Positions 7,914-60,094 of a DNA stretch of 64,000 nucleotides are shown one piece after another. This DNA comes from a virus: the IMG/VR virus record IMGVR_UViG_3300005663_000028, positions 64,001 through 128,000 of that record; one strand, written 5' to 3'. Position numbers and translations under genes: made by a program. Each line of letters begins with the position of its first letter. The stretch's first letter is position 1. Under the pieces are notes generated by a model, which searched no databases, was not told where the DNA came from, and saw only the letters and a list, made by a program, of their open reading frames with translations.

Positions 7914-7930
7914 GGAAAGCTTTCCGTTTT

Positions 7931-35012: not shown

Positions 35013-35583
35013 TCCGGATCAATTTCGGTTTCAAACTCTTAGTCTTCAACCATTGTTGTTTTCTATTAACACCAAGCCGCTCAACAGTTTCGTCAATACA
35101 TGCTCTAATAAAAATTCTGTCTTCTTCGGTCAATTGATTTGATGACAAAATATCGTTGAGCACATTAAATGACTCCAATTCCACTGACGGTTCGTTAAGA
35201 AGTTTATCCAAAAAACTGAGATCAATCAATGACTGTAAGTCCATAAATCTTTTCTGTGAAATTTGGAGTTCGTCGCAAATCTCCAATTCTGTTTTCCCCA
35301 TAGCCAAAAGCATCTCAATCTTAAGTGCTAACCTTTTAGTCCCATGTGGAGCAGAAGCGGCAAACATGGCATCCATAGCAGTATCTCTCATGGTACGAGC
35401 CACCGCAGCAATAGCATACGAAATAAAGTCACGATGTTCGTATTGACCCCCACTGATTTCCGCCAACTTAAGATGCCCTGCTTGAATGTAGTCATCCTTG
35501 TCAGCACAACAACTAGGATAGAGATAGGCAATTTTTGTCGCAAATCTCTCCATAAATACATCAAGAGTCCGCCGACGTTCCAC
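34996..35583 (-). CDS. Phage RNA polymerase sigma-70-family factor
   Basis: Region 2 DKDDYIQAGHLKL...FISYAI..V; region 3 ELEICDELQIS...LSFLD; region 4-like LTEEDR...LGV.RK. Confidence 0.7.
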   Translation of the reverse strand: MERRRTLDVFMERFATKIAYLYPSCCADKDDYIQAGHLKLAEISGGQYEHRDFISYAIAAVARTMRDTAMDAMFAASAPHGTKRLALKIEMLLAMGKTELEICDELQISQKRFMDLQSLIDLSFLDKLLNEPSVELESFNVLNDILSSNQLTEEDRIFIRACIDETVERLGVNRKQQWLKTKSLKPKLIRSGYGD

Positions 35584-36029
35584 TAGAAAGGGATCTCGCT
35601 ATCATCAACATCTGGCACCGGCACGGACTCTGGCTTTGGCTCTGACTCTGGTTTTGGCTGTGATGTTTCCGACTTTGTCGGAACATCACTCTTCTTGTGT
35701 CCATTTTTTTCCACCAATTGGAAATCACGAATGTTCATCGAATGTGCAGTACGCTTTTGACCATCCTTTTCCCACTTATCCTGCTTCATGTAACCTGTTA
35801 CATAGACGGGCTGACCAGACTTAACTATTTCAGCCATTTTTTCCGCACGAGTCCCCCATATTTGACCCCTCAGAAAACAAACCTCTTTTTCGTAATCTCC
35901 ATCCTGTTTCTTGTAGCTACGATTGAAAGCCAAGTTAATAGTACAGACCGGAGTATTTTTACTACCAACATACCTCAATTCCGGGTCTCCCGCCGCCACA
36001 CCAACACCAACAACCATTAATTCTGCCAT
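35583..36029 (-). CDS. ssb: Single-stranded DNA-binding protein
   Basis: DPELRY...LAFNRSY...WG..AE......G..VYV.G...Q..WE.DGQKR; acidic tail ending DDSEIPF. Confidence 0.95.
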   Translation of the reverse strand: MAELMVVGVGVAAGDPELRYVGSKNTPVCTINLAFNRSYKKQDGDYEKEVCFLRGQIWGTRAEKMAEIVKSGQPVYVTGYMKQDKWEKDGQKRTAHSMNIRDFQLVEKNGHKKSDVPTKSETSQPKPESEPKPESVPVPDVDDSEIPF

Positions 36030-36041: not shown

Positions 36042-36566
36042 TTACTTTGTTTTTTCTTTACCCCAATCTTCCTTTGATACCAACTCTGATTTTGTCGCTG
36101 GTACAACAACAGCAATACCGAATTCAACTAGTGCGTACTTCCCACTTTCTTCCGGACACCTCGCCTTTAGTTTGTAGTCATCAAAAATCTGACATGACTT
36201 AATTTGCACCAATATGTTCTTTAAACTCACATCAGAATCACTTTCATCTATGGTTTTCTTGAGCCTTGCTAAAACATCTAATTCAATCATACCAAGAAGA
36301 TGGTCGGTGCCATACTTACTACACCTTCCAATCATAAAGGTTGGAATTTCGAACATTCCGCGAGACAATAATTCCGCCACTTTCTTAGCTTCGAAATCAC
36401 GCAACCCATGTCGAATTACACACTCCCCATTGGTGTGATCCGGAGATTTACAGAAAAATACATTTGCATTTGGATCAATTGAACGATTTTTCCTCTCGGG
36501 AGAATAATCCACACACTGATTAAACCGCCCTAAAAATAATTTGTATTGCTTACCTTTGTCACTCAT
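36042..36566 (-). CDS. Hypothetical protein
   Basis: 174-aa ORF between dnaE-C and ssb. Confidence 0.6.
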   Translation of the reverse strand: MSDKGKQYKLFLGRFNQCVDYSPERKNRSIDPNANVFFCKSPDHTNGECVIRHGLRDFEAKKVAELLSRGMFEIPTFMIGRCSKYGTDHLLGMIELDVLARLKKTIDESDSDVSLKNILVQIKSCQIFDDYKLKARCPEESGKYALVEFGIAVVVPATKSELVSKEDWGKEKTK

Positions 36567-36657: not shown

Positions 36658-38508
36658 TCAGATTAACTTCTGAATATCTGAAATTATGAAGCTACCATTT
36701 TTCTTCTCACCATGAATCAGACCAATAATGTCTTCCTTACAGCATGCCTTTATTCGACTAAACGGGCCTGGGAACACAACCGCACGATCAATCGAATACG
36801 TAGAATCCGACACTGTAAGAATACACATTGACTGACCCGGATTCTTTCCTTTTTTGGTTGTCGTATGTTTGACACTATCGATAATGGCACATATAGCAAT
36901 TGATTCATTATTGGGTGCCTGTGCTACTTCTAGACAAGTATGGGTGGCAAAAGTACTATCGACGTCATCCGCCTGGGAGCAAGACAGAGAAATACCAAGG
37001 AAATGCTTCTCAGCAATCGCCTTAGCCCCATTAGTGTCCGAAATAGGTTCCTCTAGGAGTTCTGCTTTTTCTTCTACTCTTGTACGTCTTGCATCGCTTG
37101 AACAAGGAGGCTTAACCACAATATCCTTGTAACCATTTTGCACCATCAAATCGGCAATACCCTTTTTGGTTCGACCCCCAATACTATTTAACCACAAATC
37201 TTTTTCTTCTGGAGACGTGTATACAAATTTACCATCTCCGTCCATAATTTCGTCAAAAGCTGCGCATACCTGATCCAAATACCCAATCGCTGCACTCACC
37301 AACTCTGGTTTACTCATCTGCCCTATTTTCTTGATTTTGTTCCCTGGGGGTTGGGCCATTTGCAGCAAGATTTCTTGTGTAGTCATTATTCCTTCGGAAA
37401 GCTGATTAAAGAAGTAGACCTTTTCTTTTGCGGTCAACCCTTTAATTTCGACCTTTTTACCTTCAGAATTGTACGCGGCACCCCCAAGAACTATTTCAAG
37501 CTCCCTTACCATCTCACTGCGGCCCATATCAAAGCAGTCACATGCACCAGATTTAATCAACGCTATCCCTACATTCCTGTGGAGCCTTGGAACTGCCGAG
37601 AGGAAGTTGGCCCAGGTGTCTAGAGAGCCTGTTCCTGACGTTTTCCCCGCCGCTGAGATGATTTCCTTGATAGCCGAGGGTCCGACACCCCTAACGTGCG
37701 CCAGGCCGAAGGCAACGCATTTCTGTGGCTTTTCGACAATCTGAAAGTTCACATTTCCACGACGAATATCTGGCGGCAGCACCTTGATATCAAATAATCT
37801 GGCATCCTGTACCAATCTATATATTTCTTCCTTCGGATCACTCTTATAATTGGCAAAAGTGAGGTAACTGGCAAAAAATTCATATGGGAAGTGAGACTTT
37901 AACCACGCTGTGGGATAACTTATTCCTAGTCCATAACTTAAAGCGTGACTTTTATTAAATTGGTACTTTTGGCACTTTTCGATCCATCCGAAAATTTCTT
38001 CAGCCACATCTTTATCAATACCACTATGTTCTTGACATCCCTCGATAAATTTAGTTTTTAGTTTAGCCATCTTTTCTGGTAATTTTTTTCCAATGGCCGA
38101 CCGAAGTGTATCTCCATCGATTGGGTCAAAGCCCGCCAAATCCGTGGCAATGCGCAGCGATTGCTCTTGGAAAACCATCTGAGCGTTGGTAGATTCTAAT
38201 ATGGGCTTCAAAGATGGGTGTAAATAAGATGGCTCTTTGCGTCCAAATTTAACGTCAACATATAGCTCGCTGAGCCCACCTTCGAGGGGTCCAGGTCTCA
38301 AAATACTAACCAACGCAGCAAGTTCTTCTATATTGTCCGGTCTTACTTTTTTTGACCAATCTTGACCTAGACTTTTTTCAAGCTGAAATACCCCGACCGT
38401 GTGGCCTCCGGATATGAGCTTCCAGGTAGCAGGACAATCAAGGCGAACGTCGTTTATGTTGAATTTGCCCCTCTCAACTTGACATTTACAGTTTGTGAAT
38501 GTGATCAT
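36658..38508 (-). CDS. dnaE: DNA polymerase III alpha subunit, C-terminal half (split gene)
   Basis: GVFQLE...LRPGP...VFQEQ...LR.AIGKK...FNKSHA.SY...WLK.HFP.EF...LPPDI..G...FGL..VRGVG; C-terminal OB fold. Confidence 0.93.
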   Translation of the reverse strand: MITFTNCKCQVERGKFNINDVRLDCPATWKLISGGHTVGVFQLEKSLGQDWSKKVRPDNIEELAALVSILRPGPLEGGLSELYVDVKFGRKEPSYLHPSLKPILESTNAQMVFQEQSLRIATDLAGFDPIDGDTLRSAIGKKLPEKMAKLKTKFIEGCQEHSGIDKDVAEEIFGWIEKCQKYQFNKSHALSYGLGISYPTAWLKSHFPYEFFASYLTFANYKSDPKEEIYRLVQDARLFDIKVLPPDIRRGNVNFQIVEKPQKCVAFGLAHVRGVGPSAIKEIISAAGKTSGTGSLDTWANFLSAVPRLHRNVGIALIKSGACDCFDMGRSEMVRELEIVLGGAAYNSEGKKVEIKGLTAKEKVYFFNQLSEGIMTTQEILLQMAQPPGNKIKKIGQMSKPELVSAAIGYLDQVCAAFDEIMDGDGKFVYTSPEEKDLWLNSIGGRTKKGIADLMVQNGYKDIVVKPPCSSDARRTRVEEKAELLEEPISDTNGAKAIAEKHFLGISLSCSQADDVDSTFATHTCLEVAQAPNNESIAICAIIDSVKHTTTKKGKNPGQSMCILTVSDSTYSIDRAVVFPGPFSRIKACCKEDIIGLIHGEKKNGSFIISDIQKLI

Positions 38509-38513
38509 ACTCT

Positions 38514-38575
38514 ATTATACCTCCAAGTTGAATATTTGTTCCACAAAATCAACATTTTTTTGATGAATAATGTTG
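38514..38575 (-). promoter_or_regulatory. Intergenic regulatory region of dnaE-C
   Basis: On the minus strand: TTGACA, a CAACATT/AATGTTG inverted repeat, and GGAGG-TATAAT ending 5 nt before the ATG. Confidence 0.45.
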
Positions 38576-39130
38576 TCAATCGTCTACTCCTGGTTTTGGG
38601 ATTACCACTAGCATGAAGTGTTCATCTGGGGACAGTTTCGTGTATACATTCTGGTATTTATCAAACGAGTGGCGGTCGAAAGTGGAGACATGTATTGAGT
38701 TAATACTACCTTTATACGGTACGGTGAGGATAACTGCTTTTTCAGCAGCTTGGTACATTTTCTCTAAGATGACCATAGGGTTGCTGAAGTGCTCTAATGT
38801 CTCTGCTGAAATAATATAGTCATACACTCCAGGGAGATGGTCCGTAATTATATTTATACAATGTGTTTGTACTACTGCTTCTTCACATGCTTTTGTGCTG
38901 AAATCTAATCCTTCAACAATCCAATCTTTGCAAATACTAACCATGTGTGTTGGGCCGAATCCGAATCCACTGCCAATATCTAATATCGTTGCAGTGCATC
39001 TTGGGATTACCGTTGTTATCATATCGTAAAATCGCAATCGTTTCTTAGATGACCAAATTTCTTGAACATCGGCGATAGAATATCTATCGTTCCACCACTT
39101 AAGCGTGTTGTCGTTTTTTTTCTGCGACAT
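38576..39130 (-). CDS. Class I SAM-dependent methyltransferase
   Basis: ILDIGSGFG...GLDFS...YDYIISAETLEHFSNP; start placed at ATG 39130 (AAGGAG RBS). Confidence 0.88.
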   Translation of the reverse strand: MSQKKNDNTLKWWNDRYSIADVQEIWSSKKRLRFYDMITTVIPRCTATILDIGSGFGFGPTHMVSICKDWIVEGLDFSTKACEEAVVQTHCINIITDHLPGVYDYIISAETLEHFSNPMVILEKMYQAAEKAVILTVPYKGSINSIHVSTFDRHSFDKYQNVYTKLSPDEHFMLVVIPKPGVDD

Positions 39131-39143
39131 ATTAACTCCTTTT

Positions 39144-39743
39144 TTACTGCTTTTCACATACCCAACGATAACACCATCTTGGTGGCTGATATTCCGTAAT
39201 AGCATCGTGTGGTATGTCGTCATCCTTTGTGAGTTGTTCATAACCAAAACCAGCTTTGTCTAGTTCTTGAGCAGACCATGAAGGTGTCTTTCCTGGATAT
39301 ACCGAACCAGTATTCTGGGTTATAATGAATAATCCACCCGTTTTCAATACCCTAGCAGCTTCTGTAAAAAATTGTTTTACCACTTCGTCCTCACAGTGTT
39401 CTATTACAGAGACACTGAACACTATATCTATGGAATTTTTTTTCAAAGGCATGTTTGTCATAGAACCTTGATGATACTGAAGACCAGGGGTTATTTCTCC
39501 AATGGACCACGCAGCCTGATCTATGGCAACAACTAATCCCGGTGAGACATCGGCTAAATGGTGGCAAAACGGATGTGTTCCACCGCCAGACGCTGCGTCT
39601 ACCATACGAAGCCCTGGCTTTACCCATCTCATAGCAAATTCATATTCGTAAGGACGACTCCATCTGGATTTGAGTGGAAGATCGTGCCGACCAACAGAGT
39701 CTATTGTCGGATCACCACTTACAATATATCGTGATTTAATCAT
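39144..39743 (-). CDS. Class I SAM-dependent methyltransferase (type 11-like)
   Basis: MVDAASGGG...DIVFSVSVIEH...ARVLKTGGLFIIT. Confidence 0.88.
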   Translation of the reverse strand: MIKSRYIVSGDPTIDSVGRHDLPLKSRWSRPYEYEFAMRWVKPGLRMVDAASGGGTHPFCHHLADVSPGLVVAIDQAAWSIGEITPGLQYHQGSMTNMPLKKNSIDIVFSVSVIEHCEDEVVKQFFTEAARVLKTGGLFIITQNTGSVYPGKTPSWSAQELDKAGFGYEQLTKDDDIPHDAITEYQPPRWCYRWVCEKQ

Positions 39744-39757
39744 TTTTCATTTCCTTT

Positions 39758-40402
39758 TCAGATTATGTTTTTGTTGACAAAAAGATGACAAGGCCAATCG
39801 TTGGTTTCTGTGGTCATTAAGAAAAATTCAGACATTCTTTTAATAGCGTCTGTTGTTTGTGCTTCTGGATAAATTCTTCCTCCATGAAAAGAGACGCAAA
39901 GCTGCCCTATTTTATTTCGTAAATCAGGTTTTCTCATAATTTCATTTATTATTTCAAGTTCAGCACCTTCACAGTTACAAAAGAGAACATCTATGCGAGG
40001 TATATCGTTTGTTTTCAATATAGACTCCACACTTGTTGATTTCACCTTAGTCCTTTGTGTCAACCTCATACTTGTCTCTTTCTTGTGTCTTGGATAGATA
40101 CTATGAGAACACCCTCCTGGGAATTCAAAAAAATCAATTTCACCATCTTCTCCTGTCACGGCTAATTGACGAGTAATAATTTTTGATCCAAATACTGCCT
40201 GATTTAACAAATGACAATTCTCTTCATTTGCTTCATAAACAATAGTCGTACCACTGAATTTTTGATCAAGAGCAATCGCATGAATTCCAGTTCTCGATCC
40301 AATATCTATAAAGATTGGCTCTGGTGGCAAAATTCCTTTTGCAAAAAATAAATAACGACTACACCTGTCTAGCTGTAATCGTGTTTTAATGTGTTCATCC
40401 AT
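39758..40402 (-). CDS. FkbM-family methyltransferase
   Basis: FIDIGSRTG...YEAN...IDVLFCNCEGAELEII. Confidence 0.85.
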   Translation of the reverse strand: MDEHIKTRLQLDRCSRYLFFAKGILPPEPIFIDIGSRTGIHAIALDQKFSGTTIVYEANEENCHLLNQAVFGSKIITRQLAVTGEDGEIDFFEFPGGCSHSIYPRHKKETSMRLTQRTKVKSTSVESILKTNDIPRIDVLFCNCEGAELEIINEIMRKPDLRNKIGQLCVSFHGGRIYPEAQTTDAIKRMSEFFLMTTETNDWPCHLFVNKNII

Positions 40403-40417
40403 TTCATCACCCTTTCT

Positions 40418-41125
40418 TTATTCGGACCATTCGGTTTGATTATGATCATCTGGTTTGTACTTTCTTATGAGAGGCAGACCGGAAACCTTATAGTCGCCAA
40501 ATGCGTGTAGAATAATATGTCCATCTCTATTGTCCCATCCTGGAGGCAAAATCCCGAGACTTAAGTCTTTAGCCTTTGTCGTTGCAGGGAATAGTGCTGG
40601 CATATCTCGCCCACAACCAAGCAACCTCCAATAGTATTCCCATTTCGTGAACAGCTTTGTGGTATTTTCTGTTTTACGAAAAAAGAAAACACCTTCCTTA
40701 TAAATCGTTGCGGGATAATCTTCCTGATTCATGAATTTGCCATATAACCATGCCATAGGTAATCTCTGTCTGTCTATCCCTATTCGTTCGAAGACTGAGA
40801 ACATCACATCATAGTTCTTCGCTGTTGTAAATCCACCTAAAAACTCCGCTGATTGAACAGCGGTATCTGTATCGCAGAATAATGTAATATCAAACGGTGA
40901 AAACAAATCTGTTCGAATTTTGTAATATCGATTATCTTTCTGTTCAACACCAACTACTTCAAATGATACGTTCGGTAAGTCATCCCATTCTTTACATCTT
41001 TGATCTTTTATTAAATTTGTAATCACCCTAACTGGAATGTCGCTATATTTTCTTATCAAAATTACCGAGTGAGCACACTGATAGTCATACTGTTTGCCAA
41101 AAGCAACATATAGTACTCCATTCAT
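40418..41125 (-). CDS. Putative GT-A glycosyltransferase (GT8-like)
   Basis: GVLYVAFG...YKI...SPFD.TLFCDTDT (DxD)...GVFFFRK...DMPAL. Confidence 0.75.
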   Translation of the reverse strand: MNGVLYVAFGKQYDYQCAHSVILIRKYSDIPVRVITNLIKDQRCKEWDDLPNVSFEVVGVEQKDNRYYKIRTDLFSPFDITLFCDTDTAVQSAEFLGGFTTAKNYDVMFSVFERIGIDRQRLPMAWLYGKFMNQEDYPATIYKEGVFFFRKTENTTKLFTKWEYYWRLLGCGRDMPALFPATTKAKDLSLGILPPGWDNRDGHIILHAFGDYKVSGLPLIRKYKPDDHNQTEWSE

Positions 41126-41151
41126 CTCTAGTCCCCTTTTCTCAAATTCTA

Positions 41152-41985
41152 TTAAGCGCCATAACTTTTCATTACTTGACGCAATATAGAGCCAATTTTT
41201 GGTGACTTTATTACTAATTCGTCAAATAGTGAACTTTGACATGCGGCAAGAAATTCTGATTTTCTGAAAGAATATCCTCTGGATTTTTTAAGATTATCGA
41301 TTCCCAATTCTGCCAAGCGAATATGAACTCCATGATGGGCGGATGTTGTCAAAAAAGACCAGTAGGTATCTGAAAGATTTTTCGGTATTTCACCCAAATC
41401 AGACTCCAGAATCATTTGTAAAAGAAACCGTTCATTAAAACCTGCCCCTATTTTTGGTACTCTACGTCCAAGTTCGCCAGCAATAAGTTCTGAACGATAT
41501 TTGTCAATTACTGGCATCATTATCTTAAACCATTCCTTTGGTTTTACGACATGAATACCACCCATTCTATTCGGACCAGAACTTGCTCGAATACAGTTGC
41601 TATATGGTATGTCAAGTAATTCACAATGAGATAAGTGTTGTTGCATATAAGACGGAAACTCTTTACAAATAGCCATATCTACGTCTCCGATAGAAAGACA
41701 ATCAAATAGTTCGAATACTGGATCGAACATTAGCCACCTCAAACACTTTATGGTCTCGCCATCCACCCTACCGTATTCATCAAAAGCATTCTCTTTGACA
41801 ACAAAGCTGAATGGCAAAATACTTAATATCTCTTCAATGTTTTCCTCTATGTGTCTATCCAAAAATATCATTTTATGTGATTCGGGGTAAGCCTGATCTA
41901 AAAAATATAACCACCAAGGAATATATTGTTGATACGATCCATTAGCTACTGTAGTAAAACACATTTTATTTGCATCTAATATCAT
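41152..41985 (-). CDS. Putative GT-A glycosyltransferase
   Basis: Y..YIPW.LY...LRW...LSIGDVDM (DxD)...NE..L. Confidence 0.6.
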   Translation of the reverse strand: MILDANKMCFTTVANGSYQQYIPWWLYFLDQAYPESHKMIFLDRHIEENIEEILSILPFSFVVKENAFDEYGRVDGETIKCLRWLMFDPVFELFDCLSIGDVDMAICKEFPSYMQQHLSHCELLDIPYSNCIRASSGPNRMGGIHVVKPKEWFKIMMPVIDKYRSELIAGELGRRVPKIGAGFNERFLLQMILESDLGEIPKNLSDTYWSFLTTSAHHGVHIRLAELGIDNLKKSRGYSFRKSEFLAACQSSLFDELVIKSPKIGSILRQVMKSYGA

Positions 41986-42740
41986 GTTTGTATTCCCATA
42001 GCTTTTCTAAACATTTGTCCGAGTAGGGTGGAAGATTCTAGAAGCTGTTCGCGATTCATTGTTAAGGATTGGGAATTACCCTGCTTGAACATTTGATGGA
42101 AAAGCATTGTACCCAAAGAATCCTCGGAACAGTATTTATCAATTGATTCTTTCCCATCAAATCGGAAGGCTTCCCAAGAAGGAATTTGCATCAAGAGACG
42201 ATAATCCAAATGGTGATATTTCTTTCCCTTAACCGCCTGTCTGATAGTGGCTGGACCTAGTGATCCCCATGTGAATATGTGTTTTGGTGAATGAAGATTC
42301 AATTGATACTCAATGACCGAGACGGCTTTCGAGATCACCTCACCGCGCTGCGTAGAGAGTAGGAACCCGCATTCCGGTTCTCCGTAGTTAAGGCCGGGAG
42401 ATGCTGTTGCTACTAGATCGATTCCATCTTTCAGAAAATCATACAATGGCTTTAGGCTTTTAAACAGTATTAGGTCCGAGTCAAGCCAAATTCCTCCGTG
42501 TTCTCTCAACAACATATATCGAAGATAGTTCGATCGATTATTTATTTGCGATATTTGGAAGAAGGTGTCTGATATATTTGGTAGAAACTGTCTGACATTT
42601 TCAGTAGTCACCATGTGGATATCAAAATCTCCTTGGCAGTGTCTCCTGATTGTCTCTAGACACAACTGGATATAAGCAGGTGATTCTGTTGCTGGTGGAA
42701 TATTATCCCAATATAGCCAAATTTTAGGTTTTTCCATCAT
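41982..42740 (-). CDS. Capsular polysaccharide synthesis / GT32-like DxD glycosyltransferase
   Basis: KIWLYWD...IQLCLETI...SNYLRY.LL..HGGIWLDSD...LGP. Confidence 0.88.
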   Translation of the reverse strand: MMEKPKIWLYWDNIPPATESPAYIQLCLETIRRHCQGDFDIHMVTTENVRQFLPNISDTFFQISQINNRSNYLRYMLLREHGGIWLDSDLILFKSLKPLYDFLKDGIDLVATASPGLNYGEPECGFLLSTQRGEVISKAVSVIEYQLNLHSPKHIFTWGSLGPATIRQAVKGKKYHHLDYRLLMQIPSWEAFRFDGKESIDKYCSEDSLGTMLFHQMFKQGNSQSLTMNREQLLESSTLLGQMFRKAMGIQT

Positions 42741-43312
42741 CTCATCACCGACTGAAGGAGAACGTTGCGATGATCACCCATGTAAATATTCATATTCTTG
42801 ATTCCCATCGACTTCATCTTCTCCCTCAGTTCACCTTCTTGGTGTTTAGCACTAGGTGATTTCCGGACATCAAAGTCTATCAATAGCGACTTAACCATAT
42901 TATACTCGCCGGACTCAAGCAAATTCATAACAATCTCGCATTCACTTCCCTCTGCATTAATTTTCAGGAAAACCTCATCTCCCACAAAAATGTTTTCTCT
43001 GAACCATTCAGACGCATTAATAAATTGACATTTAGTAATACGTGGTTCTGGGTTACAGGTGGTTTCATAGTCTAGATGAACGCTAGCTCCCTGCGACCCC
43101 TCGTTGTGTAAATCCATTTTGCACGTCTCTGACCACAATCCAGCTTTGACGATTGTCACTCTTGGATTATTCTCAAACTTGCGATCCAAAATGTCGTGAC
43201 ATATTGGAGAAGGATCAAATCCAACAATCTTGTCGACCTTGAATCTCGGACTCAATAACAACTCTATCGTCTGCCCAATATTACTGCCTACATCTAGAAA
43301 TACTCTTGCCAT
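42737..43312 (-). CDS. FkbM-family methyltransferase
   Basis: FLDVGSNIG...FDPSP...FLKINAEGSECEIV. Confidence 0.88.
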   Translation of the reverse strand: MARVFLDVGSNIGQTIELLLSPRFKVDKIVGFDPSPICHDILDRKFENNPRVTIVKAGLWSETCKMDLHNEGSQGASVHLDYETTCNPEPRITKCQFINASEWFRENIFVGDEVFLKINAEGSECEIVMNLLESGEYNMVKSLLIDFDVRKSPSAKHQEGELREKMKSMGIKNMNIYMGDHRNVLLQSVMR

Positions 43313-44155
43313 CTACTTTCTCCAATCAAAATATACAAAGCGAGCCAGAAATACGTCATTGTGAATATGAAATGCGAACTTGAGTTTCGACAGCAGTCCC
43401 GCTACTTGCAATTGACGAAAAGCAAATTCATGATTAGACGGAACACCCTCCCTTAAAAACTTACCTATATTATCATACAGATTACCAAATTGGTCCATAA
43501 TCTCTGAACCACCAAAAAACCAATAATCCGCCAATGCTGGATAGTGTGGAGTGTGAGGATAGCCAGTATGTGTATGTCGAAGTTCTTTGTTTTCTTTCTT
43601 GTCCCACCCGTGAAAAAACCAGTCTGCATGACGTATTCCTTGTCCGTCGGGCATTTTCATTACACACCAATTACTAGCGTAGAAATGATTCTGGTCAAAC
43701 TGATCAAAATGGACATCCACCATCCACGCAACATCAAATCTACCAATCATAACCATATCATATTTGAATTCATGCTCCATTTCATACTGCTTCTTAAGTT
43801 GCACACACCTCTGTATGCCATACCATCTGGCAATCGTAATCTGGCTTTTGGAATCTATTTTGTCTGAATAATTATTACCAACCTTGGCTCCGATAGTGTT
43901 GAATCTTGGATCAGATTCAAATATCGTTGCTTTTGGATTGTAAGCAGCAACTAGGTCTTGTTCTGCATCGACACTGGGTGTATGTATGAAGACATCAACG
44001 TCATTATGAGCTAGTATGTGTTTTCGATAATGCTCTAGTCCTTTTCTCCATTCGACAGGTGTACGTTTACCAGATTTGCCATCCCACATCTGACCATTAA
44101 CTGTTTTTTTGCCCGGATGCAAAGCCATTCCTGTTAAACACAAGGCTATTTTCAT
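43313..44155 (-). CDS. Putative glycosyltransferase-like protein (KIALC.SG...YD.V...RFD type)
   Basis: MKIALCLTG...DVFIHT...YDMVMIGRFDV...D.WFFG; a family common in viral glycan loci. Confidence 0.6.
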   Translation of the reverse strand: MKIALCLTGMALHPGKKTVNGQMWDGKSGKRTPVEWRKGLEHYRKHILAHNDVDVFIHTPSVDAEQDLVAAYNPKATIFESDPRFNTIGAKVGNNYSDKIDSKSQITIARWYGIQRCVQLKKQYEMEHEFKYDMVMIGRFDVAWMVDVHFDQFDQNHFYASNWCVMKMPDGQGIRHADWFFHGWDKKENKELRHTHTGYPHTPHYPALADYWFFGGSEIMDQFGNLYDNIGKFLREGVPSNHEFAFRQLQVAGLLSKLKFAFHIHNDVFLARFVYFDWRK

Positions 44156-44165
44156 TGCTTCACTC

Positions 44166-44945
44166 CTATTTTTTCTTTAATTTTCCAAGATTAGTTTTGT
44201 CGACAATAATTGATGAAGTATCAACTTGTTCTGCAACATTTTTTTGTATTTCTAATCTCATCCATTCTTTTTCTCTTTTTATTATGTCTGCTGGGGTAGA
44301 AGGACTACCACACCTCTCGTCTAAAGGTAAGTTGATAGCTATAAATTGTCTTTTTGAGAGTATCGTTAATCCAGCACGTCTATTACCCATTCCCCATGGG
44401 AAGTCGATAATATCATAACTACCGTCATAGTATTTAGTTCGTAGGTCAAGAACAAATTCGCGACAGCCATCTATACGAAGCGTGTCGTGGAATGCAATCA
44501 TACCTGTTGGCGAAAGCAATGGATAGATAGTGTCAAAATCATTCTTAAGTCCAGGATATGAATGACACCCATCTATAAAAGCGAAATCTATTACGGGGCA
44601 TTCTGACAATAATATTTCTTTGAATTTTTGCGTTGTGGTGTCAACTTTATGGAGAGTAAAGTTATTATGCCCTTCTTCCACAAGTATTTTTTCAACAGAT
44701 TGTTGAGAATATTGCATTTGGAATTGTTTGTTTAATCCATGAGTACCCCAAAGATCAAACCCATACACATGTCCGCTGGTTTCTTTGGCCGCTTCGCATA
44801 GGTATTTAGTTGTTCCACCCCTAAAAACACCTATTTCTACACAAACCTTATATCTGTTAAATATTATGAGTTGCTTAATGAACACACTTTCACTTCTAGC
44901 ATGTTCTTTCATGACAACCTTCCTTGTTCGTTCAGAAGATTCCAC
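44166..44945 (-). CDS. Class I SAM-dependent methyltransferase (Methyltransf_24-like)
   Basis: VEIGVFRG...YGFD...IDFAFIDGCHSY......F...L...G.IAFHD. Confidence 0.9.
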   Translation of the reverse strand: MESSERTRKVVMKEHARSESVFIKQLIIFNRYKVCVEIGVFRGGTTKYLCEAAKETSGHVYGFDLWGTHGLNKQFQMQYSQQSVEKILVEEGHNNFTLHKVDTTTQKFKEILLSECPVIDFAFIDGCHSYPGLKNDFDTIYPLLSPTGMIAFHDTLRIDGCREFVLDLRTKYYDGSYDIIDFPWGMGNRRAGLTILSKRQFIAINLPLDERCGSPSTPADIIKREKEWMRLEIQKNVAEQVDTSSIIVDKTNLGKLKKK

Positions 44946-46483
44946 AACATAAGCTTCCCAAGATGAAACAACATTTCAGCATATGGTTGGTGATGCAATG
45001 ATGCTATGTTAAGATAAATCAATGCCGTCAATACTTTGACCTTATGGTGGTCATAATGATTGCGAATCAAATATTGTTTTAGCCATGTTTCACAGTCAAT
45101 AAGTGTCTGTCTCCTAAGTAGGTCAAAGTTAACCGTCGTACCATAAATGTCTATTTCATACAATCCTTGGTGAATGATTCCATGAGATACTATTAGTCCA
45201 TGCCATAGCTTTGCTAGGTCATAGTAAATGTCACCATAGTCCTTTAATCCACCAAAGTTCTGTCTCCAATCCAGTAGGCAAAAACCTTCTCCTGTGTCTA
45301 TGGTATTCTCAAAATGCAGATCGCCATGGAATCGTACCGGTATGCCAGTAGACATCCACGACCAATCTATCCGACCTAGTAATTCTGCAACGGAAGGAAC
45401 ATCCACACCATTAATACATTGTCTAGAATCATGATAGCCAAATCGTTCAAAATAATCATGTATTCGTTGAGTGGTTTTATCCTTATAAAATTCTAGATAT
45501 ACTTTCTGGATTTCTTTTGTCAACAGTTTTTGTTCGCCCCAAAGACCCTCTAACCACGTTAGAAAATCCTTGAATCGTGATGTAGTAATAGTGTTGGACA
45601 AAACCCGTCCATCTACCATTGGATAGCAATACATACTAGCAGTACTTCCCTCAAGCTTTGGAACATACCCTTCTAAAGTATTGGCTCTTACCACTCTTTC
45701 TGCTGTGAAGTCTTGGTCTGTAGAGAATTTTATTACCCTACCATTGCAAAACCAAATATGTTCCTGTTCTTTCGGGAGAATATTTGGATCACCATCCCTG
45801 CTAAAAGTATCATTCGCATAAGCAAGAGCTTCTACTGTTCCTGTATCATACCAAGTAAACTTTTTACCTCGAACTGTCTGTTCTTTTACCATTCTTGAAA
45901 GGGCACCCGCTTCACCCTGACCTGTTCCACCAACAGTTTTTATAATTTTCATGTTTCCCCAAAAGGCTTTGTAATCATAAATACCACAAATACCAATATA
46001 GGCTTTAGCTTCAGTGTGTATACCCTTTTCCCCAACATCTTTCACTACAGTATCATCCCATGAATCTACCACAATGGAACGATAATCTTGACCAGCACGA
46101 ATATCGGCGTATCCCATCCAATCATGATCCGGTACTGGAACATCCTCGGTTACTATCGCATCATTCGTGAAGAAAATGAACGGACATTGCAATATTTCTT
46201 CGTAGTCACATAAATCAGATGTAAGACCCTTTCTATTAGCCCAAATAAATGTGAACTTGCGATCCGGATAAGCCAAAGTTAAAAACTCTTTCACCAATTC
46301 ACCCTTGTGTCCAAGATCAATGATCAATTCTATGTCTGGCGGAAACTTCTCTATGATGTACGATATAATAGGACGGTTAGCTACGGGGACCAGGGTCTTA
46401 TTAACATGATCACAATGATTCCCTAAGCGAGAACCAACACCGGCAGTTGGTATCAGCACCTTGTACTTCTTATTCTCTTCCAT
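44909..46483 (-). CDS. Bifunctional sugar-phosphate nucleotidyltransferase + APH/choline-kinase-like phosphotransferase
   Basis: N: IPTAGVGSRL...NKTLVPVANRPII...WYDTG. C: HGDLHFEN...LLDWRQ.FGG...GDIYYDLAK. Confidence 0.88.
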   Translation of the reverse strand: MEENKKYKVLIPTAGVGSRLGNHCDHVNKTLVPVANRPIISYIIEKFPPDIELIIDLGHKGELVKEFLTLAYPDRKFTFIWANRKGLTSDLCDYEEILQCPFIFFTNDAIVTEDVPVPDHDWMGYADIRAGQDYRSIVVDSWDDTVVKDVGEKGIHTEAKAYIGICGIYDYKAFWGNMKIIKTVGGTGQGEAGALSRMVKEQTVRGKKFTWYDTGTVEALAYANDTFSRDGDPNILPKEQEHIWFCNGRVIKFSTDQDFTAERVVRANTLEGYVPKLEGSTASMYCYPMVDGRVLSNTITTSRFKDFLTWLEGLWGEQKLLTKEIQKVYLEFYKDKTTQRIHDYFERFGYHDSRQCINGVDVPSVAELLGRIDWSWMSTGIPVRFHGDLHFENTIDTGEGFCLLDWRQNFGGLKDYGDIYYDLAKLWHGLIVSHGIIHQGLYEIDIYGTTVNFDLLRRQTLIDCETWLKQYLIRNHYDHHKVKVLTALIYLNIASLHHQPYAEMLFHLGKLMLWNLLNEQGRLS

Positions 46484-46817
46484 AATCATCCTCCAACCTC
46501 ACAACATCATCTAGTTCTGTTGTAGAACATTCAAGATAGACGGCAGGATGATCAGGGAAACTAAATGTGAGCCCACCTTTCATGCGATGATTGACTCCTG
46601 GAAGAATAGTTATATGATCTCCCTTGGTTAGCGTAAGTATTTCATGATCAAAATAGATCAATAGCACACCACTCAACACATATATCGTCTCGGTCTTATG
46701 TTTATGGTATTGCTTGCTACAGCGTTTACCTGGATTCATACACAATCTCTTGACAACGTACTTATCTCCAACAAAAAGTATCTCTTCTTTCCCCCATGGC
46801 TTTTCTATCGTTTTCAT
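46470..46817 (-). CDS. Cupin, mannose-6-phosphate isomerase type II C-terminal-like
   Basis: EKPWG.E...S.QYH.HK.ET.YVLSG...I.PG..HR; start placed at ATG 46817. Confidence 0.85.
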   Translation of the reverse strand: MKTIEKPWGKEEILFVGDKYVVKRLCMNPGKRCSKQYHKHKTETIYVLSGVLLIYFDHEILTLTKGDHITILPGVNHRMKGGLTFSFPDHPAVYLECSTTELDDVVRLEDDYGRE

Positions 46818-46818
46818 T

Positions 46819-47811
46819 TCAACACCCCAAAGATTCCAAGTAATGATCAATCACTCTCGTTATCTCACAAAGAATACCTTCTCTCACATCGCATTCTTCT
46901 GCAAGTTCACTTATCAATCGTTCATATAAAGGTTCATGGTAATGATAATGACCGGCTACCAAGGCACATAAGTATTGACCTTCCCAACTGTCAATCCATT
47001 TTTTCCAATTGTCATGATGAACTACACGACACACGAATCCCCTAGTGTCTATACCATAAATAAGAGCTTGAGACAAAACATAGTTTGTTTGTACGACACC
47101 CAACTGTGGTGCGATATTAACTGCATCTACTATTCCACGACGCCGCACTATCTGTTCTCTGGTTAAATAGTCGGCATTGTGCTCTTTCAGTTTTGTACCA
47201 CAACTTTTGAGAATTTCGTGCATCTTGCCTACGCTGTCTGTATTAAATGCACCAGTATTACGTGTTTCACGAACCAAACTCCCAGTCTGCACGACGTAAA
47301 AGACAGGGTTGGCCACTTGCTGGCACGCCTGTACGTCTTCTCTGATCTTGTTTACATCTAATTCTGCTATACCAACATTGTCGTCGGTACCTATTTCAAA
47401 CATAACGTCAGACCTAATATTCTTGGCAAATTTCATAAGTTCAACAGTTCGGTTAATTTTTTCTTGATGAGACATTTTAGCATGACACAGATCAATATGA
47501 ATTAGATCAAATCCGTTTTCTAGATCACACCTAATTGTATCCCTAACGGATTGTATCGTATCATCTTTTGGTCCGAATCCGGGTCCACAGTGATCGCGAC
47601 AAATGGTTACGTTAGATTTCGGGTACTTTCTTTCTATCTCGGCAATATAGTTCATATACTGTTGTGTGGTGAATACATATCCGCTATTTTTATCTACTTG
47701 ATTTCTAGAGCATATCAGCATCAATGGCTTACACCGAGTTTGTGAGCAATAGAAAACTGCCTCAATGATTTCCTTACTCATGGGTCCGCAGGCTAGCTTA
47801 GATATCGACAT
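46819..47811 (-). CDS. GatZ/KbaZ-like TIM-barrel (tagatose-bisphosphate aldolase non-catalytic subunit / hexose-6-P epimerase family)
   Basis: GPMS...LICSRNQVD...GY...CRDHCGP...GFDLIHID...EIGT...KEHNADY...NIAPQLG. Confidence 0.8.
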   Translation of the reverse strand: MSISKLACGPMSKEIIEAVFYCSQTRCKPLMLICSRNQVDKNSGYVFTTQQYMNYIAEIERKYPKSNVTICRDHCGPGFGPKDDTIQSVRDTIRCDLENGFDLIHIDLCHAKMSHQEKINRTVELMKFAKNIRSDVMFEIGTDDNVGIAELDVNKIREDVQACQQVANPVFYVVQTGSLVRETRNTGAFNTDSVGKMHEILKSCGTKLKEHNADYLTREQIVRRRGIVDAVNIAPQLGVVQTNYVLSQALIYGIDTRGFVCRVVHHDNWKKWIDSWEGQYLCALVAGHYHYHEPLYERLISELAEECDVREGILCEITRVIDHYLESLGC

Positions 47812-48212
47812 TTTAGAAATTCATCCCCTTCCATTCCTTTGTTTCTTTCTAAATTAACACAAAGTGCCGTGTCAACACCTTTTCTTTCTGGTTTAACGTC
47901 GTTTATAACCATTCTCGGTCCTCGTGGCAAATCCATGATTAAATGATTCCACCACAATCCTGCCTTGCGCATCTGATCTTCTGTTGTCTTACGCATGCTT
48001 CCTGGCCTTCCAGTGGTTATGACAAGGGTATATCCTTTATGGCCCCATTGTTTGAACGCCTCTTTTACTCCGGGCAGCAATTCGCACGAATTAGACATAA
48101 TTGCACCTATGTCACCTTGATGCTTAAACACACAACCGTCTAAATCACAGAAAATTGTTTTAATATGTATCGCGTGATCAATCTGTGTCACTTTAATCCT
48201 CCCCGTCACCAT
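47793..48212 (-). CDS. HAD-family phosphatase
   Basis: IFCDLDG...LLPGV...ITTGRP...VINDVKP. Confidence 0.85.
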   Translation of the reverse strand: MVTGRIKVTQIDHAIHIKTIFCDLDGCVFKHQGDIGAIMSNSCELLPGVKEAFKQWGHKGYTLVITTGRPGSMRKTTEDQMRKAGLWWNHLIMDLPRGPRMVINDVKPERKGVDTALCVNLERNKGMEGDEFLKCRYLS

Positions 48213-50511
48213 CCGGATTATTAACCAGATTCATAGCCATCCACATCTTGTCTAGCGCGACGACCCCGAGGAAATCAAATTTAACAGCACCCATCTTCTC
48301 TGCATCTGCCATTTCCAAACCAACAACACGATCCTGGGTTTTCGCATCATAAACTAACGGAACCAGTTCTTCGATTGGTCTATCCGCAATAACTACACCT
48401 GCTGCGTGTCTAGATTGTGATTTTTTAGTACCTTCAATTCTCATAGCTTGGTCAAAAAGAGGCTTATACCATTCATAAGCTTCCTTAACGTATTCAACAT
48501 TGTGAACGGCCCATTGCAAGATACCATAATCATCACCGAACTCTTTGCGGGCTTCTTTTAATTCATCGGCAATTGACGCATCATCTGGCATATGTTTAGT
48601 AATGTCATTACATAGGTCGTGTGGAGATATGCTAATGTCTTTTTCATCGTTACCCTCTTTTACAGCCCTTACCTTCATCAAATGCTTAACCGTATCCGGA
48701 TTCGCACGGAATACTTCTTTTAGGGCGGCTTTTCCCTGAAGTCGTCCAAAGGTGATCATCTGAGCAACATATTCGTCACCCCATCGCCCTTTAAGGTATT
48801 CAATAACCCTGCCACGAAAAACAACTCCGATATCTGTATCGATGTCAGGGAGACTAATGTGACCATCGTGAGTCTTCACTTTTTTCGCAACATCCAGTTC
48901 TTCTGGCCCACATATTGTTATTCCAAGACCGTATGCTAGATGTGAATTTGACGGATTGACTGCTGGCTCAAGCTTGATCATATCGTACAAATACATCCAC
49001 ATCCTAGAATTATTCTTATCTATCCATTCAACCTCTTCCCTCATCGTGTCGGTAAACTTGACAGAATCACGATCCCTTATGTGTCTTGCTAAATGCTTCG
49101 ATACCGACTTCCTTTCTTCGTCTATATCCCTGGTGTGGAATAATTCGAAATTCTCCGACATCCAGGATACGAAGTCGGTTTGCCCGACATCGAAGTGGGG
49201 TGGAATGTTGCGACTTATATTATAAAACCGCTCAAAGTATAGTCCGTATTCGATTGGATCAATGCCAGTGATGCCCGTTAGATAGTTTACCAACGACCCA
49301 GCCCCAGAACCACGCCCCTTGCCACGGGGTCCATTATTTTTATCGATGAACTGACAAGCGTCCCAAACGATAAGAAAATAGTCTGCCAACCCAGCTTCCC
49401 TGACAACAATTAATTCTCTTTGCAGTCTTTCCCAGTATATCTTTTTCTGTGCAGGGTCCAGGTGAGTCAATTTAACCCCAGCGCCTTGAATACAAAGATG
49501 TTTGAGATATTCATTTGAGTCGAGTCCCAACTTTTCTGATTCATCATTTGTAAAAACTGGTAGATATGGACTATGCCCCATTGGGGAGTACTCTATTTGA
49601 GCGGCAATGTCTAGTGTGGTTTGCAGTTCTTTCTCTGTAAAGTGTTCTCTCATTTCTGCATAAGACGGAATATAGTAGTTGTCAGAGAGAAAGAAGTCCA
49701 TGACATCTTGACCTGTAGATATTTTGTAATCCTGAGCTTCTTTTGTCGTATGTAAAAATGCATAAAGCAAAAGTCTCTGGTCCTCAGCATCTTCTTTTCT
49801 ACAATAATGAGCATCAATAGATGCAACTGTCGGTACTCCAGTTTCTTCACTAAGCTCTCTTAAGCAGTCTAACACAACTGCTTGGATTCCCATGCCGGAA
49901 TTCTGAAGTTCAAGAAAATAGTTGCCTTTTCCAAAAACAGCGATATGTTTATGGATAATTGCTTTACCAACTTCTTTCCAATTGGGTTTTAGGTGTTGTC
50001 TAGACCCAGCAGCGTTTCCGTTTCTACCAGCCATGATCGCTTCTTTGAAGTCTGTGAACAATGCCATAGGCAATGCCCCGGCGATGCACGCTGATAGGAA
50101 TATCAGATTACCTCGTTTTGCAAATGGGGCTATCCCAGCTAAATCAATGCGCGGCTTGCGATAGAAATGATGGGGCTGATTAGATTCACTAACTAAACCC
50201 ATTAGGTCTTCGATTCCCCGGTCGTTCTTTGCCAGAACTATTAAGTGGTTCCGTTTGTTGTTGTCGTTGTTTTTGATTGTTGGGTCTTGTTCACAAACGT
50301 ACATTTCGATGCCTAAAATGGGTTGGATTTTCTGTTTTTTGCATTCGTCATAGAATGTTTTCATGCCTCCAATTCCACCATGGTCGGTAATCGATGCTGC
50401 TGGTAAACCTAGTTCTACACAACGATTCACAATGTCCTTGGGAGAACTGAGTCCATCCAGAAGGCTAAAAAACGAATGGATATGGAGTGGCGCATATGTT
50501 TTCTTTGACAT
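48193..50511 (-). CDS. dnaE: DNA polymerase III alpha subunit, N-terminal half (PHP + palm/thumb; split gene)
   Basis: LH.HS.FSLLDG...ITDHG PHP domain; GRGSGAGSL.NY..GIT.IDP..YGL.FERF; catalytic PDIDTD; S.HAAGVVI; KFDFLG. Confidence 0.95.
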   Translation of the reverse strand: MSKKTYAPLHIHSFFSLLDGLSSPKDIVNRCVELGLPAASITDHGGIGGMKTFYDECKKQKIQPILGIEMYVCEQDPTIKNNDNNKRNHLIVLAKNDRGIEDLMGLVSESNQPHHFYRKPRIDLAGIAPFAKRGNLIFLSACIAGALPMALFTDFKEAIMAGRNGNAAGSRQHLKPNWKEVGKAIIHKHIAVFGKGNYFLELQNSGMGIQAVVLDCLRELSEETGVPTVASIDAHYCRKEDAEDQRLLLYAFLHTTKEAQDYKISTGQDVMDFFLSDNYYIPSYAEMREHFTEKELQTTLDIAAQIEYSPMGHSPYLPVFTNDESEKLGLDSNEYLKHLCIQGAGVKLTHLDPAQKKIYWERLQRELIVVREAGLADYFLIVWDACQFIDKNNGPRGKGRGSGAGSLVNYLTGITGIDPIEYGLYFERFYNISRNIPPHFDVGQTDFVSWMSENFELFHTRDIDEERKSVSKHLARHIRDRDSVKFTDTMREEVEWIDKNNSRMWMYLYDMIKLEPAVNPSNSHLAYGLGITICGPEELDVAKKVKTHDGHISLPDIDTDIGVVFRGRVIEYLKGRWGDEYVAQMITFGRLQGKAALKEVFRANPDTVKHLMKVRAVKEGNDEKDISISPHDLCNDITKHMPDDASIADELKEARKEFGDDYGILQWAVHNVEYVKEAYEWYKPLFDQAMRIEGTKKSQSRHAAGVVIADRPIEELVPLVYDAKTQDRVVGLEMADAEKMGAVKFDFLGVVALDKMWMAMNLVNNPDGDGED

Positions 50512-50512: not shown

Positions 50513-51460
50513 TTATTTCTCCTCAGGTTTTCCTATTGCAAGCTGACCTTCATAAGTCAAATTAGTGTAACGATCTTCTATGTATTCACTTCCCATTGTG
50601 TTTAAGTCCGACCAAACCCTATTGCAAATGCCGTTGTTGTTGAATGAACACATCTTGCAAGTCCAATGTCTATTTCTCAAAAGCAATGTGTCCTGCTTTA
50701 CCGTTGTGAAAAATCTATGTAATACCGCTACAGTCCTAGCCAAATCATCTTGAGAAAATGCTACTGTTACTGGCCCACCGTCGTTTGCATAGTAGAATGT
50801 AACGATTATGTTTTTGTATTGAGGATACAGAAAATACGCCGCCAAGTGATATAGTCGAGGCTGCACTTCTTTTGTAAGAACTTCTTCATCTATGTCTTCT
50901 TGTGTGTGAAAGTTTTTTCGATTACCAGTTTTCCAGTCCACAATTTCAATCGTTTCTTTGTCGATTTCTTTAACTAGGTCAATAAAGCCTCTCGCAGCAA
51001 ACTGATGTTTATTTCCATCTTTGTCAGTACATTCCCATTCTTCTCCTGGCATCTCCATTGCAAACCATTGTTCGATACCTATTGATTCGTTATCATATGG
51101 ATTGTAGTGTTTATCAGCTAATATTGTTTCTAAGGCAACCCTACACTTTTTGTGGTCAGCGGCTTCCTTAAGGTCTCCAGTTTCTTTATCTATACGAGTA
51201 GTCACCCGTCTAATCGCAATTTCAGGAGATTCTGCTGTCAACTCATCCCAGGCCCGATCCAACAACCACATTGGGTCAACATTAGTCTTGCCTCGCCTTT
51301 TCAGTTGACACATCCACTCAAGGGTTTTATGAACAATGCTTCCTTGCAGAGCCGCCAACCCAGTTTTAGTTTCCATCCCCAATATATAATGAAGAAAATA
51401 AGCAAATGAACAATGATAGTACATCCCAATTGCGCTGGCGCTGCATTTTGTTATTTTCAC
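50513..51460 (-). CDS. Cas4-like PD-(D/E)XK exonuclease with 4-Cys cluster
   Basis: YHCSF...G..VH..LE...GFIDL...IVDWKTG...Q..LY...CKMCSF....C. Confidence 0.88.
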   Translation of the reverse strand: MKITKCSASAIGMYYHCSFAYFLHYILGMETKTGLAALQGSIVHKTLEWMCQLKRRGKTNVDPMWLLDRAWDELTAESPEIAIRRVTTRIDKETGDLKEAADHKKCRVALETILADKHYNPYDNESIGIEQWFAMEMPGEEWECTDKDGNKHQFAARGFIDLVKEIDKETIEIVDWKTGNRKNFHTQEDIDEEVLTKEVQPRLYHLAAYFLYPQYKNIIVTFYYANDGGPVTVAFSQDDLARTVAVLHRFFTTVKQDTLLLRNRHWTCKMCSFNNNGICNRVWSDLNTMGSEYIEDRYTNLTYEGQLAIGKPEEK

Positions 51461-51894
51461 GATTTGTCTTCTTTGTCCTGCTCTGTGTATCGAGCGGGTC
51501 CATCCTGAAACAAGTGCTGGAGATGAATTACTTTATTCTCCATGTCATTTAGTAAGGCTGCCATCTCACATTTTGGTGGACGATCGTCATTTAATTTCTT
51601 ACATTCTATCGCATCAATAAGTACTCCGATACATGCTAAAGCACTTGCCAGATGAGGAACTTCGGTTTTTTGATCAGCCCATTCCCCATTAAACCACTTA
51701 TCTAGATGACGATTTACTGCTGCAAAATAAACAGAAGCCTTAACACCAGAGACTCTGTAGTTATAGCCCCCATACTTCAGATCACCTTCAGTCATAGCTA
51801 GAGCACCATACGCCCTTGCTGTAGTAGGAAATAGGCTCAAATCTAGTCTAGCTGTTGCCATTCTATCTTTAGGATTTGTATCTTTTTTCTTCAT
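51457..51894 (-). CDS. dATP/dGTP diphosphohydrolase-like protein (DUF5664)
   Basis: RLDLSL.P.......A.AM.EG..KYG.YN.R......S.Y..A..RHL..W..GE..D......HLA.A.A...L.D. Confidence 0.82.
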   Translation of the reverse strand: MKKKDTNPKDRMATARLDLSLFPTTARAYGALAMTEGDLKYGGYNYRVSGVKASVYFAAVNRHLDKWFNGEWADQKTEVPHLASALACIGVLIDAIECKKLNDDRPPKCEMAALLNDMENKVIHLQHLFQDGPARYTEQDKEDKS

Positions 51895-60041: not shown

Positions 60042-60094
60042 TCTGTTCCCCTTTTTTGTTTTTCTTACGATAACGGGTATACCCCGTTATCTTA

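Follow-up and report, generated by a model that had tools for sequence, protein, structure and literature searches.

A Split, Intein-Free DnaE Predicted to Form the Sole Polymerase of a Divergent Tailed Phage

The window analyzed here, a 64,000-nucleotide stretch (bases 64001-128000) of the 179,553-bp IMG/VR virus record IMGVR_UViG_3300005663_000028, encodes a C-family DNA polymerase of the DnaE type (DNA polymerase III alpha subunit, Pol III alpha) as two separate open reading frames (ORFs), with 13 other genes located between them (Table 1). Pol III alpha is the textbook example of a single-chain replicase and, to our knowledge, its sole well-known natural split is one that is healed by a split intein. 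Our results suggest that the sole replicative polymerase of this phage is very probably made as two polypeptides, which would come together non-covalently to give a single DnaE-like enzyme. An earlier note on this DNA, made from the sequence alone, had proposed such an assembly, and it is in all likelihood still the best explanation of the arrangement.

Two Genes Together Encode the Domains of DnaE

The gene for the N-terminal portion of the enzyme (N-half) matched the PHP (Pfam PF02811, E 1.7e-37) and palm/thumb DNA_pol3_alpha (PF07733, E 8.9e-63) families, and its product aligned to positions 3-636 of Taq DnaE. The PHP metal site is complete, with nine conserved ligands (H10, H12, D19, H44, E69, H89, C142, D233, and H235), and the catalytic aspartates of the Pol-beta-like palm, D556 and D558 in PDIDTD and D746 in KFDFLG, are invariant. 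When modeled alone with AlphaFold2 (AF2), the N-half had a predicted local distance difference test score (pLDDT) of 90.9 and a predicted template modeling score (pTM) of 0.87. Directly before the catalytic DID motif the palm carries a helical insert with four confidently modeled helices (residues 447-512). The C-terminus reads ...KFDFLGVVALDKMWMAMNLVNNPDGDGED up to the stop codon and ends in an acidic tail that was modeled with a pLDDT of about 42 as neither helix nor strand. The corresponding tails of relatives are likewise acidic and variable (0-22 aa), frequently with ..VLDEEFVE...

The second gene (C-half) begins MITFTNCKCQVERGKFNINDVRLDC...GVFQLE, and its product aligned to Taq DnaE 646-980 and to E. 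coli alpha 585-915. The AF2 model of the C-half alone (pLDDT 86.8, pTM 0.74), which includes a beta-barrel at residues 536-614, superposed on the fingers-to-OB part of the M. tuberculosis, Taq, and E. coli enzymes (Foldseek, about 615 columns). The two halves together thus contain the PHP, palm, fingers, HhH, and OB parts that characterize C-family polymerases of the DnaE type, and what departs from that type is the single polypeptide: the N-half stops at 48193-48195 and the C-half starts at 38508, with 9.7 kb and 13 genes between. The ORFs, motifs, and end sequences that the earlier note had assigned to the two halves were all confirmed. In the proposed enzyme, subunit 1 would contribute the PHP domain with its full metal site, the thumb, and the palm with the three catalytic aspartates, and subunit 2 would contribute the fingers, HhH, and OB fold.

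Alignment to Taq and E. coli DnaE places the break in one loop, in agreement with its earlier placement between two adjacent DnaE motifs. This short surface loop lies past the helix that follows the third catalytic Asp (KFDFLG), and about 9 residues equivalent to E. coli alpha ~576-584 are missing. Judging from the E. coli domain limits of Lamers et al., we take the cut to be just inside the fingers, beside the palm boundary.

The C-half starts with an N-terminal extension that carries three cysteines (C7, C9, and C25), which are invariant in 64 of 64 aligned C-halves and lie in a region modeled with a pLDDT of 91. Across 42 loci, the three residues are either all present or all absent, and no fourth Cys or His that co-varies with them was found in either half. 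None of the examined contiguous DnaEs has the motif (the third Cys alone is retained in one), and one subclade is still split though it lacks the motif entirely. We conjecture that this region forms a small metal-binding or structural knuckle that stabilizes the new N-terminus or docks on the N-half.

The Split DnaE Is the Only Polymerase in the Genome, and Both Halves Are Constrained

The split DnaE is the sole DNA polymerase of the phage genome. The genome, which was scored as 100% complete (CheckV), encodes one palm and one fingers module, and no PolA, PolB, or DnaQ-type exonuclease was found in it. Since no DnaQ is encoded and all nine PHP metal ligands are conserved, the PHP site is probably the proofreader of the phage.

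Synonymous sites are saturated in comparisons of the window with its relatives, and the ratio of nonsynonymous to synonymous substitution rates (dN/dS) was therefore calculated for a moderately diverged pair of relatives, L010 and L011. The N-half had a ratio of 0.045 (dS 1.45) and the C-half one of 0.051 (dS 1.34), as compared to 0.03 for DnaB, 0.044 for primase, and 0.035 for the adjacent nuclease. Both halves are under strong purifying selection, like DnaB and primase. The earlier suggestion that both halves are intact is borne out by their conserved motifs and by dN/dS values of about 0.05, and relaxed selection in one of the halves, which would have spoken against a shared function, was not seen. 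The halves were linked in a constant order in every genome seen, and a Mantel test of pairwise identities of the N- and C-halves across 41 genomes yielded a correlation (r = 0.95) that was not reached in any of 999 permutations.

It could be argued that the halves no longer cooperate and have separate roles, for example as a PHP exonuclease or as a decoy that binds the clamp or tau, with the host polymerase replicating the phage. Neither a beta clamp nor a clamp loader was found in the phage genome, so host replisome parts are probably used anyway, as this scenario would have it. However, all catalytic residues of the polymerase have been retained throughout a very deep clade, the fingers motifs are conserved as well, and the halves are linked, co-diverging, and selected like DnaB and primase. 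Moreover, known DnaE structures place the binding of the incoming dNTP in the fingers, so that neither half alone has a complete active site. We consider separate roles to be improbable.

The Break Is Found Across a Very Large Clade of Phage DnaE

The earlier note had presented the arrangement as particular to this genome, but the same break was identified in a very large clade of phage DnaE. In ten viral contigs at 72-79% identity the break is identical in all, with the distance from N- to C-half ranging from 5.1 kb to >10 kb. Protein relatives were compiled from a collection of 5.8 billion proteins, and the best 120 N-half relatives (51-79% identity; about 110 full-length and a few truncated entries) comprise PHP and palm only, with full-length members of about 736-809 aa, or ~1,150 aa where an intein is present. 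These N-halves stop 0-22 residues past ...LDKLWKAQDLING (...DLING). There is a matching family of C-halves, all of which begin M-I-x-F-x-x-C-x-C-x-V-x-x-G-x-F...PLDC, and contiguous DnaEs (>1,351 aa) come no closer than 39% identity.

A profile-driven scan recovered viral loci at 36-48% identity that are split at the same loop. The distant members include a compact clade with N-halves of about 630 aa that lack the 115-aa palm insert; the insert was found only in the clade with N-halves of ~770 aa and is also missing from Taq and E. coli DnaE. Loci of the compact clade encode a ~227-aa DnaQ-like RNase_T exonuclease in the gap (20 of the 23 examined), and a ~80-aa ORF often precedes this exonuclease gene (L048-L095; e.g., L078:12161-12844 and L059:12158-12823). 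Short gaps in the ~770-aa clade contain either genes for a macro domain protein and a uracil-DNA glycosylase (UDG) (1 kb; L033 and L037) or a kinase-like gene.

The 150 best representatives of clusters at 50% identity included 106 that were N-half-only, 33 that were contiguous, 8 fragments, and 4 with other C-terminal extras. Phylogenetic reconstruction of 143 usable N regions (FastTree) separated a clade of 110 sequences (104 split and 6 contiguous) from a mostly contiguous clade of 33 sequences, with 100% local support. The split or contiguous state changed at least 6 times on this tree, as compared to about 33 times when labels were shuffled. The split appears to be ancient and common to a very large clade of phage DnaE, of which it is probably the ancestral state. 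Three members of the mostly contiguous sister clade (P0383, P0384, and P0404) encode an N-half followed by 120-170 unrelated C-terminal residues and no fingers, which may represent a different truncation or split.

No Splicing Element Was Detected at the Break

The earlier note had described the split as intein-free and the FNKSH site as intact, and our screening supports both statements. No match to the Intein_splicing/HINT family (PF14890) was identified in the 179,553-bp genome, and the cyanobacterial intein site (YQFNKSH) is uninterrupted at residues 182-188 of the C-half. An N-intein would span about 100 aa and start with a Cys, whereas 8 residues follow the last DnaE helix of the N-half. 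A C-intein would comprise about 35 aa or more and end in Asn, whereas six residues (MITFTN) precede C7 of the C-half and about 16 residues precede its first DnaE-aligned position. In relatives, canonical in-frame inteins (C...HN/C or S) occupy four other DnaE sites and none is at the split, and the copy in the window has none at all. For example, L010 carries inteins at PIIG/C...HN/CEMY in the N-half and at RPGPLE/C...HN/SGMS in the C-half, and one of the inteins of L006 lies at or beside the FNKSH site.

It is nevertheless conceivable that the halves are joined covalently by a minimal trans-splicing element that has gone unrecognized, with the F-x-N/C-x-C start of the C-half being the relic or core of a C-intein. 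Many C-halves have x-N-C at residues 6-7, which resembles the C-terminal Asn of an intein followed by the +1 Cys, and this DnaE family is heavily colonized by canonical inteins elsewhere. Yet a HINT fold requires ~130 aa, as compared to the 6 residues before the Cys and the at most 22 variable residues past the last N-half helix. Many C-halves have K, S, Q, G, A, D, or H instead of Asn at residue 6, and neither the absence of a HINT match from the genome nor the split subclade devoid of the Cys motif fits such an element. Trans-splicing is, in our view, very unlikely.

Removal of the island at the DNA or RNA level, by site-specific excision or by cis- or trans-splicing of a giant intron, would restore a single dnaE frame. 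There is precedent for such events, since developmentally excised elements interrupt essential bacterial genes (skin/sigK and nifD) and phage replication genes often contain group I introns. However, no Rfam intron family was detected in the window, where four tRNAs were the sole matches at the gathering threshold, and no direct repeats were found to flank the island. Pfam matches of the 13 island ORFs include no integrase or recombinase domain, and the 13 proteins have no match to HNH, GIY-YIG, LAGLIDADG, or Vsr homing endonucleases. Contigs from three public runs, which possibly represent the source sample and hence are not independent, span both island edges with zero mismatches and include no joints that omit the island. 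Among relatives, the stop and tail of the N-half are conserved, as are the Met start and promoter of the C-half. The island itself begins with a gene that abuts the N-half stop and ends 67 nt before the C-half. Excision or intron splicing is thus even less credible than trans-splicing.

The weakest alternative, a mis-assembly or a recently broken gene (pseudogene), has nothing in its favor beyond the metagenomic origin of the contig and is of negligible probability: the layout recurs in dozens of independent assemblies of other samples, which argues against a chimera, both halves are under strong purifying selection, and contigs bridge the two island edges, where the earlier note had considered that a chimeric joint might lie.

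The C-Half Probably Has a Conserved Promoter of Its Own

The N-half ATG is 1 nt past the stop of the upstream nuclease gene, and the N-half would probably be read off the upstream replication transcript. The C-half is preceded by a phage-type promoter motif, and the configuration TTGTGGAACA-N15-GGTATAAT-N5-ATG is kept in 8 of 10 relatives, also when a different gene lies upstream. Within this region TATAAT is invariant among relatives and GGAGG is variable. The motif belongs to a family (TTGTGGRACA-N15-17-(G)GTATAAT) with seven sites in the genome. It was recognized by alignment; a scan with the sigma-70 consensus yielded matches that were no more common than in shuffled sequences.

Conservation of the motif indicates that the C-half very probably has its own phage promoter, with an mRNA that starts at or beside the AUG. 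The -10 element is only 5 nt before the ATG, which suggests that the C-half mRNA is leaderless. For the same reason, the earlier assignment of a ribosome-binding site and a TATAAT box to the C-half stands in part: GGAGG and TATAAT are both present and TATAAT is conserved, but the two cannot serve one transcript. The separate and conserved promoter of the C-half argues against obligatory coupling, or co-transcription, of the island and the polymerase, a coupling that the earlier note had raised as a possibility.

The Island Elaborates an Older Gap

The gap in this genome is occupied by 13 co-oriented ORFs, as the earlier note had described. Genes for nucleotide-sugar synthesis encode a HAD phosphatase, a class-II aldolase/GatZ-like protein, a PMI-type cupin, and a sugar-1-phosphate nucleotidyltransferase fused to an APH-type kinase. 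The other genes are for five or six methyltransferases and a GT32-like glycosyltransferase, and three encode proteins with no match. The N-half stop overlaps the first island gene, as had been noted, if that gene starts at the ATG at 48212, or else sits 1 nt before an alternative GTG start at 48191, which has GGAGG ahead of it within the N-half tail codons.

Island genes are shared in part with the relatives L003, L006, L008, L010, and L011, at 55-79% identity and as mosaic subsets, and their identity to relatives is similar to that of the polymerase. L003 lacks the first six or seven island genes, six of which have no homolog in L003, and L006, L008, and L011 share a four-gene precursor module of the island. 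Given these mosaic subsets, the island is a lineage-specific elaboration of a much older gap and not the cause of the split. The connection between island and split that the earlier note had drawn does not hold among relatives, since those with the same break carry macro and UDG genes, a kinase-like gene, a DnaQ-like exonuclease, or other subsets of sugar genes. The space between the halves may therefore be described as a tolerated insertion site with cargo that varies by lineage, and which here has grown to a 9.7-kb cluster for sugar-nucleotide synthesis and glycosyl- and methyl-transfer.

The island also shows signs of strain-level variation: in the third of the public runs, 25 other letters stand in place of window positions 47353-47701. 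The Logan contigs of two runs end inside the island, at 40113-40142.

Comparison to Known Split Polymerases

Cyanobacterial dnaE-n/dnaE-c genes and metagenomic 'fractured' dnaE genes encode split-intein halves that ligate their exteins (Dassa et al., 2009; PMC2677866). As in the phage, a polymerase of the same family is produced from two genes, and in fractured genes other genes lie between the pieces. In contrast, the cyanobacterial cut is before CFNKSH and a homing endonuclease lies between fractured pieces, whereas the phage cut is past KFDFLG, FNKSH is intact, no intein is present, and the cargo is metabolic.

A closer likeness is to the 'genes in pieces' of T4-type phages, which include gp43A/gp43B (PolB) of Aeromonas phage 44RR and the T4 topoisomerase gp60/gp39; gp43A/43B of Aeromonas phage 25 co-purify and are active, as is the split NrdA of phage Aeh1 (PMC2988022). 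Like these, the phage DnaE is an essential phage enzyme encoded by two cistrons with no intein or intron and is contiguous in relatives. The T4-type cases involve other enzyme families, are young and limited to a small number of phages, and are associated with either a homing endonuclease or a short spacer that is not translated, whereas the split DnaE is ancient, by our reading, spans a very large clade, and has accommodated >10 kb of cargo. Non-covalent reassembly has been shown for gp43A/B and NrdA; for the DnaE halves it is predicted, and selection and co-divergence lend it indirect support.

The cultured Rossellomorea phage phiT1 (PV767480.1; L096 3158-6440) encodes gp20 (573 aa) and gp18 (469 aa), both of which are annotated as 'DNA polymerase III subunit alpha.' The cut in its DnaE falls in the same loop, and a small gene (gp19, 49 aa) separates the pieces, but this DnaE is 39% identical over the fingers, has a gap of 150 nt, and is known from annotation; we found no publication on this split. 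An in-frame 'CNC' occurs upstream of the annotated ATG of gp18 with no obvious start codon, and the annotated start may be wrong.

Contiguous DnaEs (Taq 2HPI/4IQJ, E. coli 2HNH/5FKU, M. tuberculosis 7PU7, DAC20 gp249, and LS1 gp76) have the same domain order and the same catalytic and PHP residues, but are single chains without the C-x-C...C start, the acidic tail, or the 115-aa palm insert. Match coordinates had suggested that Bacteroides phage DAC20 and Pbunavirus LS1 are also split; both proved to be contiguous and were rejected. Our search of the literature recovered the split-intein DnaE and the T4-type split genes and no description of an intein-free split DnaE, and the surveys of C-family polymerases and of phage polymerases that we consulted make no mention of one.

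A Probable Two-Subunit Replicase and Its Implications

The precedents of gp43A/43B and split NrdA favor the interpretation of the phage DnaE as two cooperating subunits. Two points weigh against it. First, the six contiguous DnaEs nested in the split clade form three small groups, which means that the state has changed several times; these forms have short plain linkers with no C-x-C motif and may be re-fusions or retained ancestors. Second, the acidic tail of subunit 1 and the N-terminus of subunit 2 with its three cysteines are candidate docking elements, and their role in assembly is conjectural.

A more far-reaching proposal, which we put forward tentatively and regard as rather doubtful, is that the split is a designed-in feature of the replicase and not a passive scar. 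The cysteines, perhaps with the acidic tail, would form a metal- or redox-dependent clasp, expression of the C-half from its separate promoter would set the time of assembly, or the state of the cell would gate it, and the gap would serve as a protected, well-expressed 'cargo bay' for proofreading, DNA-repair, or glycan/DNA-modification genes.

If the phage DnaE does function as two subunits, then Pol III alpha can be cut viably in nature at its palm/fingers junction, which would be useful for the construction of split or conditionally assembled C-family polymerases, and these phages would offer a natural system for determining how split essential enzymes reassemble. Gene finders and surveys that expect a DnaE of ~1,100 aa would then undercount or mis-annotate such phages. 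The phage genes-in-pieces theme would be extended, family-wide, to the C-family replicase, and the variable cargo (exonuclease, UDG, macro domain, or glycan/methylation cluster) identifies this part of the replication module as a hotspot of recurrent insertion.

Genomic Context

The sequence originates from, or is common to, marine-sediment metagenomes, and no RNA data set was listed among the public runs that contain it. Terminase and portal genes had weak PHROGs matches, and the DnaE matched its closest counterparts in 50,697 deposited phage records at 34-39% identity, with no close cultured relatives in that collection. The phage is an uncultured, deeply divergent tailed phage. All genes across 26506-63435 share one orientation, including the replication genes that flank the polymerase (Table 1).

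Table 1. Positions of the split DnaE, its parts, and associated features. Positions are in the window unless another sequence is named.
Feature	Position	Strand	Basis or location
DnaE N-half, 772 aa: PHP exonuclease-type domain, palm, thumb, and first helix past third catalytic Asp	48193-50511	-	Pfam PF02811 and PF07733
Helical palm insert, ~115 aa	48862-49209	-	Directly before catalytic DID motif; alignment and AF2
Acidic C-terminal tail of N-half, NPDGDGED	48196-48219	-	Past last helix (residues 751-764); AF2
DnaE C-half, 616 aa: fingers, HhH (beta-binding), linker, C-terminal OB fold	36658-38508	-	Pfam PF17657 (DNA_pol3_finger) and PF14579 (HHH_6)
C-half N-terminal extension with C7, C9, C25 (M-I-x-F-x-N-C-x-C ... 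P-L-D-C)	38434-38490	-	Alignment
Phage-type promoter motif TTGTGGAACA-N15-GGTATAAT	38514-38546	-	5 nt before C-half ATG; conservation; sole site of this motif in the window
Promoter motif family, window sites	38514-38546; 4532-4564; 60094-60126	-; +; -	
Promoter motif family, further sites (genome positions)	28060; 60663; 133453; 154067		
Island of 13 co-oriented genes, 9.7 kb	38576-48212	-	Between halves; ORF calls and domain matches
DnaB helicase	53041-54483	-	Upstream of N-half
Toprim primase	51894-53084	-	Upstream of N-half
MazZ-like dATP/dGTP diphosphohydrolase (PF18909)	51457-51894	-	Between primase and nuclease, near polymerase
PD-(D/E)XK nuclease	50513-51460	-	Directly upstream of N-half
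174-aa protein without assigned function	36042-36566	-	Downstream of C-half
SSB	35583-36029	-	Downstream of C-half
Inteins of relative L006	L006 10192-11327; 21006-22174; 22341-23164		
Inteins of relative L010	L010 8165-9294; 18396-19381		
Intein of relative L003	L003 17699-18495		

The MazZ-like enzyme, a protein with Mom-like and HNH parts (genome 40617-42071), and the many sugar genes hint that the phage DNA is modified. Just downstream of SSB, a 585-aa GT4 glycosyltransferase with a weak zinc-ribbon match (33255-35012, minus strand) belongs to a second glycosylation cluster within the replication block. The four tRNA genes lie among small ORFs at window positions 4607-8002 on the plus strand.

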